A stretch of DNA of 64,000 bases from an uncultured Clostridium sp. (GTDB lineage: Bacteria > Bacillota > Clostridia > TANB77 > CAG-508): assembly GCA_949467015.1 (NCBI GenBank), contig CASVZF010000002.1:2856-66855 (forward strand), read 5' to 3'. A model generated the notes under the pieces. The model worked only from the letters and a program-made list of their open reading frames with translations. It did no database searches and was not told the origin of the DNA. Position numbers and translations under genes: made by a program. Below, piece by piece: positions 35,634-40,027 of this stretch (position 1 is its first letter; each line of letters begins with the position of its first letter).

Positions 35634-35831
35634 CTAAATAGAACTCATAACTGCCATCATAAATGTTCCGCAAAATGAGAAGAACCATATTGCAAGTGCA
35701 ATAGCACCTGTTACAACACCAGCAATTGCCATTCCTTTTCCTGGTTTTTTGATGGCTATGATACCAAATATTAACGCTAAGATAGAACATGGAATGGAAA
35801 CCATCCAAAAACACCATAAGGCTAAAGACAC
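35634..35831 (-). CDS. DUF4190-family small membrane protein
   Basis: 65 aa; GIIAIKKPGKGMAIAGVVTG motif typical of DUF4190. The overlapping 77-aa frame 35584..35817 is rejected. Confidence 0.55.
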   Translation of the reverse strand: MSLALWCFWMVSIPCSILALIFGIIAIKKPGKGMAIAGVVTGAIALAIWFFSFCGTFMMAVMSSI

Positions 35832-35882
35832 GATTCCTAATATTAAAGATACTATGCTAAAACCATTGACTGTGTTTGTTTC

Positions 35883-36836
35883 TTATCTACCATAATATTC
35901 TATACATTTTTTTAATCCTTCTTCTAAAGATACTTTTGGTCTCCACTTTAATATCTCTATTGCACAACTTATATTTGGTTTTCGTCTTTGTGGGTCATCT
36001 TTCATTTCTTTACAAAAAACTATATTGGATTTAGAATTTGTCATTTCTTTTACTAATTTGGCAACTTCCAGTACCTTTATTTCTGATGGATTTCCAACAT
36101 TTATAGGAAACTCTACTGGATCTGGTAGTTCCATTAAGGCTATGATTGCATCTAATGTATCTTCTATATAACAAAAACTTCTAGTTTGGTTTCCGCTTCC
36201 ATATATTGTTATATCTTCATTATTTATTGCCTGATTAATAAAATTGGAGATAATCCTTCCATCTTCGCTATTCATCTTTTCTCCATATGTATTAAATATT
36301 CTAACCACTCTTATATCCGTTCCATATAATCTTTTATGATCAAAAATCAAAGTTTCTGCTGCTCTTTTTCCTTCATCATAACAAGCTCGAACACCAATAC
36401 AATTTACATTACCAAAATAGGATTCATCTTGTGGCGTCTGCAATGCATTTCCATATATCTCTGAAGTAGAAGTTTGTAACATTTTTGTTTTAGAGCCTTT
36501 TATTGCATCTAGAATATTTTTTACTCCTAATATACTTGCATTCCATGTTTCAATTGGAAATTCTAAATAATATTTGGGCAAAGCTGGACAAGCAAAGTTA
36601 TAAATATAATCAAATTTATTATTTTTTATAAATTCAGCTATTTTGTTATTACATATATCCTCTTCTAAAAAGTACACCTTTTCTTTTAATATTAGTTCTT
36701 CTATATTTTCTATTTTTCCTGTACTAAGATTATCTACAATATAAACTTCATTTTCCTTGTTATTTGCATACCTATATGCAAGGTTACTACCTAGAAAACC
36801 TGCACCACCTGTAATTAAAATTTTCATCTTTTCCAC
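35883..36836 (-). CDS. NAD-dependent sugar-nucleotide decarboxylase/epimerase, UDP-glucuronate decarboxylase (UXS)-like SDR
   Basis: 317 aa; ILITGGAGFLGSNL Rossmann; GVRACYDEGKRAAETL matches the UXS/ArnA-decarboxylase family. Confidence 0.75.
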   Translation of the reverse strand: MEKMKILITGGAGFLGSNLAYRYANNKENEVYIVDNLSTGKIENIEELILKEKVYFLEEDICNNKIAEFIKNNKFDYIYNFACPALPKYYLEFPIETWNASILGVKNILDAIKGSKTKMLQTSTSEIYGNALQTPQDESYFGNVNCIGVRACYDEGKRAAETLIFDHKRLYGTDIRVVRIFNTYGEKMNSEDGRIISNFINQAINNEDITIYGSGNQTRSFCYIEDTLDAIIALMELPDPVEFPINVGNPSEIKVLEVAKLVKEMTNSKSNIVFCKEMKDDPQRRKPNISCAIEILKWRPKVSLEEGLKKCIEYYGR

Positions 36837-37543
36837 ATTCTTTCAATTTCATTTATAAGGTCTTCTCTAGCACTATCCAACATATAAAATCCTGCTGCTG
36901 GATTTACATCGATTACCTTATATCCTTCCTTACTTTTTATAAAATCTATTGAAAATACTTCTAGTCTCAATAAGTTTGCTACTTTTTTGCATACTTGTCT
37001 TATTTTATCTGAAATTTCTAAGTTATCTTTGGCATATATCCTTTGATTTACATAGTAGTATTTCACTTCTTCTCCATTTATCACTTCTTCTAAGTAAAAT
37101 TTCGTTGTATCAAATTTTTCAAAAAATTCTTCTATTGTACTTTTGGTATATGCTTGAAACACCATTCCTGCATGAGAATTTTCTTTGCAGAATATCGGAA
37201 TCTTTATTCCTTTTTCTTTGTAATCTGTAATTATCTTTGGTGTATCTATTTGATTTTTAATTAGCATCTCTTGTATTTCTAATTTTGTATCATTTTTTTT
37301 AAAAAATTCTTCATTGAAGATATAACAATTTGTATTTTCTAATAAATCTACTAATTCTTTTACTAATGGCGTATTGCATAGAAAATAGAGGATACTATTC
37401 TCTAATCTTTTTTCTTTCTCTTCCTGCATCATAAATTCTTCTATCCAAATAATATTTACTTTTATTTTAGCACTGCTTTTTATCTTTATAGCACTATTTA
37501 AGTAATTCTCCGTTTTTGAAAGAATTATATTACACTCTTTCAC
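36824..37543 (-). CDS. ATP-grasp-fold ligase-like protein
   Basis: 239 aa; C-terminal ...YYYVNQRIY..FSIDFIK..YKVIDVNPAAGF resembles an ATP-grasp C-domain; moderate. Confidence 0.45.
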   Translation of the reverse strand: MKECNIILSKTENYLNSAIKIKSSAKIKVNIIWIEEFMMQEEKEKRLENSILYFLCNTPLVKELVDLLENTNCYIFNEEFFKKNDTKLEIQEMLIKNQIDTPKIITDYKEKGIKIPIFCKENSHAGMVFQAYTKSTIEEFFEKFDTTKFYLEEVINGEEVKYYYVNQRIYAKDNLEISDKIRQVCKKVANLLRLEVFSIDFIKSKEGYKVIDVNPAAGFYMLDSAREDLINEIERMWKR

Positions 37544-37949: not shown

Positions 37950-38155
37950 CTTTTTATCCTCCGTTTTACTTTATTTCTAATCTCTTTTATTTTTTTCTGA
38001 TTGATGGAAATTTGATTGTTATAATATTGTATTAACTCATCCTTTTGACTATCTTCTAATTCTTCTATTGTAATTTCATTCTTTTCTAACCTTGATACAA
38101 TGTTCTGAATGTTTTGTCTCTTATAACTTTTATACTTTTCACCATTACTTTTCAA
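37946..38155 (-). CDS. small basic coiled-coil protein
   Basis: 69-aa ORF overlapping neighbours by 4 nt. Confidence 0.35.
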   Translation of the reverse strand: MKSNGEKYKSYKRQNIQNIVSRLEKNEITIEELEDSQKDELIQYYNNQISINQKKIKEIRNKVKRRIKR

Positions 38156-38822
38156 CTTCTTCCTCCCTATTCAATCTTTTCTTTTTTGTTTCATATTCTG
38201 CTAATAATTCTTCAGCTACTACTAATTTATTTTTTAATATCTCATTTTCCGCTATAAGTTCTTGTAATTTTTCTGTTTTATTATCTGTAAATTGAATGTT
38301 TTCTCCCTCCATTGCTTTCTCTTTATTCTTTGTATATTGTAAAAATTCTTGAAACATTTTTTCATTTAGTTCTAAAGATGCACCTCCATTAAAGGTCCAA
38401 CTTACTTCAGAAATTAGGCAACCACCTCCATTATGCCAGTAGCCCATCCTCTTTTTATCTTTTTCTTCATCTCCCTCTTCTCTCCTTTGCTTTCTAATAA
38501 ATTCAGGAGTAGTAATTTGAACAAGTTCTGCATCTTTTACAATAGATTTTATTATTTTCCATTCTAAATCACTATGAATGGCATCTAAAATAATTTTGTC
38601 TTGTAAGTTTAAATAAGACAAAATTTTAGAAGTTACTTGGTAGGCATTTCTATTAAATTCTTCTCTATACCATTGTTGCCAGTCATCTCTTCCTGTACTT
38701 TCTTTACATAGCAATTTAATGATGTCTTTTTTGCTATATACTAAAAATCCATATTTAGGCGGTATATTACTTGAAAAGTAAGTTTTTCCAGCTGCATGTA
38801 AACCAGTTAAGGCAATTAACAT
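38145..38822 (-). CDS. P-loop NTPase/kinase-like protein
   Basis: 225 aa; Walker A LTGLHAAGKTY at the N-terminus. Confidence 0.5.
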   Translation of the reverse strand: MLIALTGLHAAGKTYFSSNIPPKYGFLVYSKKDIIKLLCKESTGRDDWQQWYREEFNRNAYQVTSKILSYLNLQDKIILDAIHSDLEWKIIKSIVKDAELVQITTPEFIRKQRREEGDEEKDKKRMGYWHNGGGCLISEVSWTFNGGASLELNEKMFQEFLQYTKNKEKAMEGENIQFTDNKTEKLQELIAENEILKNKLVVAEELLAEYETKKKRLNREEEVEK

Positions 38823-40027
38823 TTCGCTTCCTCCTTCTCATTATTTAAAAATCTTTGTACATATGCTAAACAATTTGTTGTTTGTATATTTGGAATTTTA
38901 TTATAGTTGTCTAAATTTTCTTTTAGGTTTTCTAATTCATCTTTTTCATGTATTTTATCCCAGTATTGTTTCCAATCTTCTACATTTCTGACATTACCAA
39001 CTGATTTAAATCCTTGTGCTGCTAAAAAACCACATAAATGAATGTCTCCATCTGGCATAATTACAAGTGCTCTTTGCCCTGCTTTACAACCTTTTACAAA
39101 AGTAAAAGGTAATTTTATTCTATGTTCTATTCCTTCATCATTTCTTAAGTAATGTCCATTGATATATTTTCCATTTTCTAATTCATTTGATAAGGATGCT
39201 CTTAAATAGTCATACTCTTTTTTATTTAGCGTATGATCCCTTAATAAGGTTCCTCTTCCAGATTCTATAAATCTTCTTATAAAAAGTGAAGTTTTGTTGT
39301 TATGCATTTCTTTGGCCAAATATATAATATTTTCCAAATTGTGCTTCATTACTACTGCATTGACTCTTACTTCTATCTCATTATTTTTTAAATTTTTGAT
39401 TCCATCTATTGTCTTTCGATAATTTCCTGTTCCTCTTATACTATCATGTGTTTCTTCTGTTCCATCAATACTCACAATAGCCTTATTTAAACCTGCTTTT
39501 TTTAGTTCTTTTGCTACTTTCTTTGTAATTAATGTTCCATTTGTTCCAATTGAAGTATATAATCCTAAACTTGTTGCTCGTTCTATAAATTCGTAGATGT
39601 CTGGATGTACTAATGGTTCTCCTCCCGTAAATCTAATTTCTTGAATACCACTTTCTGCTAGTTTAGAAATTAATGTCAATAATTCGCTTTTTGTTAATTG
39701 ATTTGGCATTTTTGTTCCCGAATTATTTAGACAATGTTTACATTTTAAGTTACATGCTCTTGTTATTTCTATGTATGCAATATCAGCAAAACTAAAGTAA
39801 TTTTCTTTAGATTCTTTGTTTTTTAATTCTGTAAATTTTATTTTATACTCTTCGTTGTCTATATTAGCAATAGAGTCTTTAGGAAATATAGTATTTCTTG
39901 TAATCTTATCTAACTCATCTTTTGTTATATATTCTCTTTTTCCTGTCTTTAAGTTCATAACAGTTGCTCCAAAGCATTCTTCTCTAATATTTACATTATA
40001 GTTCATAAAACTCTCCTCACTATACAT
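38816..40027 (-). CDS. radical SAM enzyme with C-terminal SPASM/twitch domain and ~90-aa N-terminal extension (possible peptide-recognition element)
   Basis: 403 aa; EITRACNLKCKHC (CxxxCxxC); FTGGEPL; C-terminal CKAGQRALVIMPDGDIHLCGF. Confidence 0.75.
   Translation of the reverse strand: MYSEESFMNYNVNIREECFGATVMNLKTGKREYITKDELDKITRNTIFPKDSIANIDNEEYKIKFTELKNKESKENYFSFADIAYIEITRACNLKCKHCLNNSGTKMPNQLTKSELLTLISKLAESGIQEIRFTGGEPLVHPDIYEFIERATSLGLYTSIGTNGTLITKKVAKELKKAGLNKAIVSIDGTEETHDSIRGTGNYRKTIDGIKNLKNNEIEVRVNAVVMKHNLENIIYLAKEMHNNKTSLFIRRFIESGRGTLLRDHTLNKKEYDYLRASLSNELENGKYINGHYLRNDEGIEHRIKLPFTFVKGCKAGQRALVIMPDGDIHLCGFLAAQGFKSVGNVRNVEDWKQYWDKIHEKDELENLKENLDNYNKIPNIQTTNCLAYVQRFLNNEKEEAKC

Follow-up and report, generated by a model that had tools for sequence, protein, structure and literature searches.

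A conserved radical-SAM operon on an integrase-less island at cwlD of an uncultured Clostridium, possibly an undescribed sugar-nucleotide tailoring cluster

We analysed a 64,000-nucleotide stretch of contig CASVZF010000002.1 from an uncultured Clostridium sp. (hereafter the window), in which positions 35634-40027 hold a compact gene cassette built around a radical S-adenosylmethionine (SAM) enzyme. The list of open reading frames (ORFs) gives seven co-directional minus-strand genes across this interval, in the order radical-SAM enzyme, P-loop kinase, a 69-amino-acid (aa) ORF, Nudix hydrolase, ATP-grasp enzyme, a short-chain dehydrogenase/reductase (SDR) of the UDP-xylose synthase (UXS) type and, last, a DUF4190 protein. 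The first six genes overlap successively by 7, 11, 4, 14 and 13 nt, and a 51-nt gap separates the UXS gene from the DUF4190 gene. A first-pass annotation, made from the sequence alone, had described an operon-like run of co-directional genes overlapping by 4-14 nt, which holds for these six; it also named the five enzymes and overlooked the small ORF (37946-38155). Directly upstream of the radical-SAM gene is a promoter-like site (TTGACA, a 17-nt spacer and TG-TAGGAT; 40039-40067, minus strand), which is a consensus match only. Pfam and NCBIfam bear out the domains, and no cassette protein approaches a curated equivalog cut-off in either. A search of the whole window against Rfam found no riboswitch and no other RNA family, the cassette proteins matched generic families alone in PHROGs, and the plasmid and phage DNA collections showed no similarity to the query DNA.

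The radical-SAM enzyme (403 aa; 38816-40027, minus strand) has an N-terminal domain of about 80 aa, a CX3CX2C motif and a twitch-like C-terminal domain. Alignment with homologues puts its likely start at Met8 (position 40006), and the N-terminal extension, earlier given as about 90 aa, is about 78-85 aa long. A match of 5.9e-31 to Radical_SAM (PF04055) places it in the radical-SAM superfamily, and the cluster motif, C92/C96/C99, is invariant among 26 homologues; in the same alignment the only further invariant cysteines are C314, C332 and C386, all in the C-terminal domain, and many arginine and lysine residues are invariant as well. A SPASM domain is recognised by seven cysteines in the pattern CX9-15GX4C ... 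CX2CX5CX3C ... C, by two auxiliary [4Fe-4S] clusters and by a PF13186 score at or above the gathering score. The enzyme has CX12GX4C and lacks CX2CX5CX3C, and it scores 20.1 bits against the PF13186 cut-off of 21.5, over the first half of the model only. Because only three cysteines are conserved and the SPASM score is sub-threshold, we consider this domain to be twitch-like, with one auxiliary cluster; of the earlier label "rSAM-SPASM", then, the first half stands and the second only in part.

An AlphaFold2 model of the enzyme (predicted local distance difference test score, pLDDT, 87) gives only radical-SAM folds as top structural matches, and its N-terminal domain (N-domain) consists of strands at residues 12-17, 20-25 and 31-35 followed by a single helix at 36-45. 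The family profile matches MoaA at 7e-20 over both core and C-terminal domain, and the best single-sequence PDB match is BlsE (6e-19), an enzyme that decarboxylates a glucuronate nucleoside. More than 650 full-length relatives were found, nearly all of them unnamed proteins from metagenome assemblies. The N-domain appears to be private to the family: a phmmer search of 1.84 billion representative sequences returned 27 matches, nearly all of them members or fragments of the family itself, the exceptions being three very long proteins in which repeated short stretches were aligned. The radical-SAM alignment found no close homologue among 2.9 million viral contigs, only generic radical-SAM proteins of at most 38% identity, and we therefore do not regard the module as phage-borne.

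The kinase (38145-38822, minus strand) has a fold like that of nucleoside monophosphate (NMP) kinases and AdkA, with a C-terminal coiled-coil extension in the window clade. Its AAA_18 match (2.8e-6) is slightly under the Pfam cut-off, its family profile matches the AdkA-like kinase SSO1041 at 1.4e-7, and a match to dephospho-CoA kinase is weak (2.5e-3). Between the kinase and Nudix genes lies the 69-aa ORF (minus strand), which encodes a basic coiled-coil protein; an ORF of 69-72 aa is kept at this position only together with a long-tailed kinase (L001, L007, L101, L103, L003 and L178; L numbers are our locus numbers). The Nudix hydrolase (37530-37949, minus strand; PF00293, 1.9e-16) has an intact Nudix box, GHLEEGETIEECAIRETKEETGH, which was taken straight from the sequence and conforms to GX5EX7REUXEEXGU; its closest solved relatives are Ndx1 (an Ap6A hydrolase), Ap4A hydrolase and Dcp2. 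The ATP-grasp enzyme (36824-37543, minus strand) is compact at 239 aa, matches the RimK ATP-grasp family at 1.1e-5 and conserves the ATP/Mg residues K87, K120, E152, D200, D212 and N214. Its model (pLDDT 92) is closest to ArgX, LysX, RimK and PsnB, with template modelling (TM) scores of 0.72-0.76 for the first three; the best PDB matches of its sequence profile are ITPK1 inositol-phosphate kinases (E of about 5e-3), and ITPK1/PPIP5K kinases are also among the Foldseek matches of the model.

The sixth gene (35883-36836, minus strand) encodes an extended SDR (Epimerase/GDP_Man_Dehyd, about 1e-47) that matches the human UDP-glucuronate decarboxylase UXS1 over its full length (residues 3-315) at 6e-82 and conserves the UXS motifs GGAGFLGS (NAD-binding, GxxGxxG), STSEIYG (catalytic S/T-E) and YDEGKR (YxxxK). 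To judge by these similarities it is a genuine UXS (UDP-glucuronate decarboxylase), as the first reading of the sequence had proposed. The seventh gene (35634-35831, minus strand) encodes the small DUF4190 membrane protein; it is part of a repeated DUF4190-cwlD 5' flank of the genomic island described below and is outside the conserved enzyme core.

The cassette is conserved well beyond this one contig. Fifty-seven loci with members of the radical-SAM family, whose ORFs were scanned with the window proteins, collapse to 29 radical-SAM lineages at 90% identity, 20 of which have at least 3 kb of downstream sequence. Among these 20 dereplicated lineages a P-loop kinase, either AAA_18-like or PezT/zeta-like, is present in 19, an ATP-grasp gene in 17 and a Nudix gene in at least 16, and all three accompany the radical-SAM gene in 14. 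This clustering is well beyond chance, and the check on neighbourhood conservation that had been proposed for this locus thus finds the core grouped rather than scattered. In contigs from groundwater and other environments (L126-L133) the linkage still holds where radical-SAM identity is down to about 40%, and the family as a whole is distributed over uncultured gut Clostridia (human, mouse and Hadza) and groundwater metagenomes; a scan of the genome collection with a single protein gave at least two true relatives. Several cassettes contain gene fusions: Nudix::ATP-grasp in L096, L097 and L123, ATP-grasp::methyltransferase in L126, and methyltransferase::radical-SAM in L013 and its relatives. 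The flanks vary between genomes and are mostly unrelated housekeeping genes. In Pfam, NCBIfam, PADLOC and the literature searched for this gene combination we came upon no account of the module; the first-pass annotation, too, had not recognised the combination as a known cluster. The operon is thus real, conserved and undescribed.

From lineage to lineage the core is joined by different genes, and these consistently encode enzymes of sugar-nucleotide or sugar-phosphate metabolism. UXS is present in the window clade and also in the differently arranged L177, where the stop codon of a UDP-glucose/GDP-mannose dehydrogenase gene overlaps the radical-SAM start. L130 has GFO/IDH/MocA, DegT aminotransferase and hexapeptide acyltransferase genes between its Nudix and kinase genes, and L122 has a GHMP-kinase::NTP_transferase fusion and an RpiB-type isomerase. 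Kinases of the PezT/zeta family, with a match to PezT of 1.2e-16, are present in 22 of the 57 loci; the solved PezT/zeta kinases phosphorylate UDP-N-acetylglucosamine. Metallo-beta-lactamase-fold (MBL) phosphodiesterases and extra Nudix genes are found in some other lineages. This recruitment of sugar-nucleotide genes by other lineages independently supports a nucleotide-sugar pathway, which the first-pass annotation had raised as the alternative to a peptide one.

We suggest that the operon is a mobile module that makes a modified metabolite, a sugar phosphate or a nucleotide, from a nucleotide-activated sugar, and we put the chance that this is correct at about even. Its substrate is most likely a UDP-activated sugar and not a peptide; in the window clade it is most likely UDP-glucuronate or UDP-xylose, and in other clades a UDP-hexosamine is more likely. 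From the genes we infer a substrate class, an order of steps and a product as follows. The cassette UXS would decarboxylate UDP-glucuronate supplied by the host. The radical-SAM enzyme would then abstract a hydrogen atom from the sugar of the UDP-sugar and rearrange, dehydrate or C-C couple it, and one iron of its three-cysteine auxiliary cluster is probably left open as in MoaA. The ATP-grasp enzyme, acting through an acyl-phosphate, could join a carboxylate or amine of the sugar to a small amine or amino acid as an amide, after which the Nudix hydrolase would cut the pyrophosphate of the nucleoside diphosphate conjugate (NDP-X) and free NMP and a phosphorylated product; the Nudix::ATP-grasp fusions suggest that these two steps are consecutive. 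Finally, the P-loop kinase, with a PezT-like kinase where one is present, may add or restore a phosphate, either as cryptic phosphorylation or in the recycling of NMP.

Several observations weigh against this pathway. The cassettes examined have no conserved gene for a glycosyltransferase, an exporter or an acceptor, and each set of accessory genes is limited to one or a few lineages. The Nudix protein is nearer to ApnA hydrolases and decapping enzymes than to known UDP-sugar hydrolases, and the ATP-grasp model is nearest to ArgX, LysX and RimK, which act on protein C-termini. Moreover, in a Foldseek search the radical-SAM model matched SkfB and SuiB best (TM of about 0.6, 18% identity, about 400 aligned columns).

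These last structural matches, together with that of the ATP-grasp model to PsnB, keep a peptide or protein substrate conceivable but less likely. The first-pass annotation had seen in a SPASM-type radical-SAM enzyme and an ATP-grasp ligase the typical maturation pair of a peptide made on the ribosome and modified after translation (RiPP), and had proposed to look for a precursor gene and for the fold of a RiPP recognition element (RRE). In such a system the radical-SAM enzyme, through an RRE-like N-domain, and the ATP-grasp enzyme would act on a ribosomal peptide or on the C-terminus of a protein, and the 69-72-aa ORF that parts of the family have within the operon might at first be taken for a substrate. 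That ORF, however, encodes a basic coiled coil, occurs in a single clade in step with the kinase tail and is missing from most architectures. The co-conserved precursor gene expected of a RiPP cluster was not seen either, as the sub-lineages have no ORF of 15-90 aa in common upstream of the radical-SAM gene. An RRE is a winged helix-turn-helix with a three-stranded sheet and three helices, whereas the modelled N-domain has three strands and one helix, and seven N-domains gave no match to PqqD (PF05402) even at E<=10. Only three auxiliary cysteines are conserved in an incomplete SPASM domain and, to our knowledge, Nudix, NMP-kinase-like and UDP-sugar enzymes have no established part in RiPP maturation. 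The RiPP interpretation is thus not supported, and we think it improbable that maturation of a peptide or protein is the function of the operon.

It is also unlikely, in our judgement, that the cassette is a conflict system, anti-phage or an inter-bacterial toxin, carried by mobile elements, in which the radical-SAM enzyme, in the manner of viperin with its partner kinases, would produce an analogue of a nucleotide or nucleotide sugar that is toxic or terminates chains. The roles that the other proteins would then have seem equally unlikely: kinases supplying the substrate, Nudix and MBL proteins detoxifying or regulating, and epsilon/zeta pairs serving as effector or addiction modules. The window cassette does lie on an island that adjoins an integrative and conjugative element (ICE), and other copies are found beside a serine recombinase and a DpnI-like gene, beside a type I restriction-modification system and an integrase fragment, or beside UvrD-like helicases; PezT-like kinases with epsilon-like small ORFs are within the operon in 7-8 of the 20 lineages, and an Apyc1-like MBL protein occurs in four. 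In addition, the PADLOC models of prokaryotic viperins (pVip) match the radical-SAM enzyme at 5e-26, but over residues 86-256 only, which is the generic core, and solved viperins score 1e-7 to 1e-12, below SkfB, BlsE, MoaA, CteB and PqqE. Viperins are marked by a C-terminal extension of their own, by NTP-binding residues and by similarity beyond the core, whereas the enzyme here matches over the core alone and has an Fe-S twitch domain at its C-terminus. Apart from one weak Nudix candidate no further cassette protein was matched in PADLOC, the viral contigs held no close homologue, many copies lie amid housekeeping genes, and known defence systems do not typically contain UXS, Ugd or DegT-type genes.

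The sugar enzymes might instead furnish the cell envelope with an unusual activated sugar, destined for capsule, teichoic acid or S-layer glycan and attached by transferases whose genes lie elsewhere, and UXS, Ugd and the GFO/DegT/hexapeptide trio are indeed classical enzymes of surface-glycan precursors, while two cassettes contain BspA-type leucine-rich repeat (LRR) proteins. We nevertheless find this quite unlikely, in that no glycosyltransferase, flippase, exporter or polymerase lies in or beside the window cassette or in the nine neighbourhoods annotated with Pfam; for this reason we consider none of the annotated neighbourhoods to be a capsule or teichoic acid locus, an identification that, like a scattering of the homologues, had been named beforehand as evidence against a novel cassette. 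Furthermore, a Nudix enzyme that destroys NDP-sugars and two or three kinases would be unusual in such loci, and the island is self-contained at just 5 kb. A role in salvaging or repairing a cofactor that derives from a nucleotide (pterin-, CoA- or NAD-like) in anaerobes with small genomes would fit the MoaA-like architecture and RFIE-type motif of the radical-SAM enzyme, the faint dephospho-CoA kinase signal of the kinase profile, the cofactor glutamyl ligases of the RimK family (CofF and LysX are among the weak matches) and the finding of the module on groundwater contigs. The distribution, however, is sporadic and mobile rather than core, the accessory genes indicate sugars, and no curated equivalog model is approached, so that we regard a cofactor role as highly improbable. 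Readings modelled on C-P lyase, methanopterin/F420, queuosine salvage and inositol phosphates were dropped because their signature genes are absent.

The operon is carried by an apparently mobile segment. A stretch of 5,071 bp (35222-40292, minus strand) is shared at 99.7-99.8% identity (BLAST) with L001, L002 and L006, whose flanks around it are unrelated to those in the window. At both of its edges this island breaks off inside the 5' coding region of the spore-cortex amidase gene cwlD, where the motif VIDAGHG(V/I)PDEG is encoded. The left end, TGAGATAAAATGTTGAAGTT at about 40259, abuts a displaced native cwlD 5' fragment (Amidase_3 N-terminus; 40260-40463, minus strand), 68 codons long and ending in ...VVIDAGHGIPDE, which is cut at this junction; the island brings its own cwlD 5' end of 58 codons (35223-35396, minus strand), which the following element interrupts after ...GHGVPDEG. 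In minus-strand direction the order is native cwlD 5' fragment (40463-40260), island, the island's cwlD 5' copy (35396-35223) and the second element. The two cwlD 5' fragments are 37% identical as proteins, and both are cut at the GHG(V/I)PDE(G) codons. The 3' part of cwlD was not found in the window. In L006 (CASCUT010000004.1, 14800-15400) the island-borne cwlD 5' end runs into a full-length cwlD with one frameshift just after GHGVPDEG, which may reflect either a mistake in the assembly or a genuine pseudogene.

The second element is conjugative, spans at least 34 kb (1-35221, minus strand), sits in tandem at the same cwlD site and runs off the window edge. Its left end, GAGATTGCTTATTGAAGTT, resembles that of the island. 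It encodes a MobA/VirD2 relaxase, NikA-like, VirD4-like type IV coupling and PrgI proteins and a VirB4/TraC-like ATPase for transfer, and in addition an NlpC/P60 hydrolase, a DnaG-like primase, an N6/N4 DNA methylase, an LPD1 polyvalent protein, a sortase and two SpaA-type pilins. The left ends of island and ICE have in common the motif GATGARKGAGAT, 6 nt, TTGAAGTT (at about 40240-40265 and 35197-35222), a candidate attL core for a family of cwlD-targeting elements. There is no recombinase within the island, and the recombinase end of the ICE lies beyond the window. Since both of its edges are in the cwlD 5' coding region, we regard the island as an integrase-less, cis-mobilizable element (CIME)-like unit in tandem with an ICE. 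The arrangement looks like the tandem accretion of elements at a single attachment site, the CIME-like island, presumably open to excision and mobilisation, being the carrier of the operon. A tRNA scan found none, so this is not a tRNA-targeted island. By parting the 5' end of cwlD from the rest, the insertion may have inactivated the gene here and could affect spore-cortex maturation, unless cwlD is restored at the far end of the ICE.

Further cassette copies have features of their own. Where a PezT-like kinase is preceded by a small ORF, that ORF is 65-78 aa long, resembles its counterparts in other loci and is placed as an epsilon/PezA antitoxin would be; such ORFs always precede the kinase at L123 (9169-9390), L102 (11311-11517), L003 (13241-13438) and L177 (11224-11445). 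In L011 and L012, by contrast, the PezT-like kinase has no small partner and its gene overlaps the radical-SAM stop, which suggested a pathway enzyme rather than a toxin in these loci. Two independent lineages, L114 (4413-6830 and 8540-10762) and L122 (10049-10789 and 16611-17144), have BspA-type LRR_5 proteins within the cassette and a UvrD-like helicase immediately downstream; Pfam was run on L114 only, and the identity of the L122 helicase is based on N-terminal similarity to the L114 protein. L178 (2031-5400) is a decayed copy in which the radical-SAM and kinase genes are intact and the Nudix and ATP-grasp genes fragmentary, and it adjoins an integrase fragment and a type I restriction-modification system. 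In L176 (5701-6922), a copy that adjoins a serine recombinase, an ORF for the N-domain of S-adenosylmethionine synthetase and a stand-alone Methyltransf_23 gene lie directly upstream of the radical-SAM gene and may provide a local supply of SAM for the radical-SAM enzyme and the methyltransferase. Elsewhere in the window, an unrelated minus-strand ORF (43480-44529) next to a RelA/SpoT-like gene has a CX3CX2C-like CTCSCIGC near its N-terminus and cysteine-rich C-terminal motifs, and is possibly a second radical-SAM enzyme.

We thus have an operon that, with roughly even prospects of being so, is an undescribed, compact and mobile sugar-nucleotide tailoring cluster around a new radical-SAM subfamily. 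If it is, a four-to-six-gene pathway for a metabolite derived from a sugar nucleotide is widespread in uncultured Clostridia of the human, mouse and Hadza gut, radical-SAM enzymology gains a further class of substrate along with a novel domain architecture, and the cassette offers a 5-kb target tractable for heterologous expression and metabolite discovery. More tentatively, the core might stand for an unrecognised class of small transferred clusters, spread by ICEs and built on this radical-SAM subfamily, that convert common UDP-sugars into a bioactive sugar-nucleotide analogue such as an antiviral or an inhibitor of cell-wall precursor enzymes; it is a similarly speculative part of this idea that the private N-domain and the three-cysteine cluster bind the nucleotide sugar and that the elements spread among gut Clostridia. 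The tandem of island and ICE at cwlD would illustrate how such cargo spreads between genomes.

By enzyme logic the nearest known systems are the radical-SAM pathways to nucleoside and sugar-nucleotide antibiotics (blasticidin S, tunicamycin, polyoxin/nikkomycin), which have in common with the cassette a radical-SAM enzyme, an extended SDR, a Nudix or other pyrophosphatase, kinases, an ATP-grasp enzyme (in the cassette a putative amide ligase) and, optionally, a methyltransferase. Polyoxin and nikkomycin synthesis uses the radical-SAM enzymes PolH and NikJ, ATP-grasp ligases and cryptic phosphorylation. The homology to BlsE is limited to the radical-SAM core, however, and TunB, PolH and NikJ are set beside the cassette by description. 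In the tunicamycin cluster the corresponding proteins are TunB (radical-SAM), TunA (SDR), TunN (Nudix) and TunM (methyltransferase) (PMC6105854). In contrast to these pathways the cassette has no glycosyltransferase, acyltransferase/acyl carrier protein or exporter, its hosts are uncultured gut Clostridia and groundwater bacteria rather than actinomycetes, and its N-domain is private to the family.

Among radical-SAM enzymes, the RiPP maturases SkfB, SuiB and CteB (with an RRE and a SPASM or twitch domain), which provide the top Foldseek and profile matches, have, like the cassette enzyme, an extra N-terminal domain, a barrel and a C-terminal Fe-S domain starting with CX12GX4C, but the cassette N-domain is without two of the three RRE helices, there is no conserved precursor and there are three auxiliary cysteines. 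With MoaA the enzyme shares an RFIE-type strand motif and a three-cysteine auxiliary cluster; in MoaA the three ligands leave an iron free for the nucleotide substrate. The cassette enzyme nevertheless scores 113 bits against the MoaA equivalog cut-off of 284 and has the extra N-domain, and neither MoaC nor other molybdopterin genes lie near the cassette. The pVip systems likewise combine a radical-SAM enzyme with a nucleotide-kinase-like gene on mobile DNA, although viperins have neither N-domain nor twitch domain and the constant partners in the cassette are Nudix and ATP-grasp. Many cassettes resemble PezAT in having a PezT-like kinase after a 65-78-aa ORF, an arrangement absent from the window cassette. 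Finally, tandem accretion of ICEs and CIMEs is known, for example ICESt1/CIME in Streptococcus thermophilus, and the present locus agrees with it in the head-to-tail order of an integrase-less island and a conjugative element with similar ends, each preceded by a copy of the 5' part of the target gene; the difference is that here it is cwlD that is targeted, in its 5' coding region.

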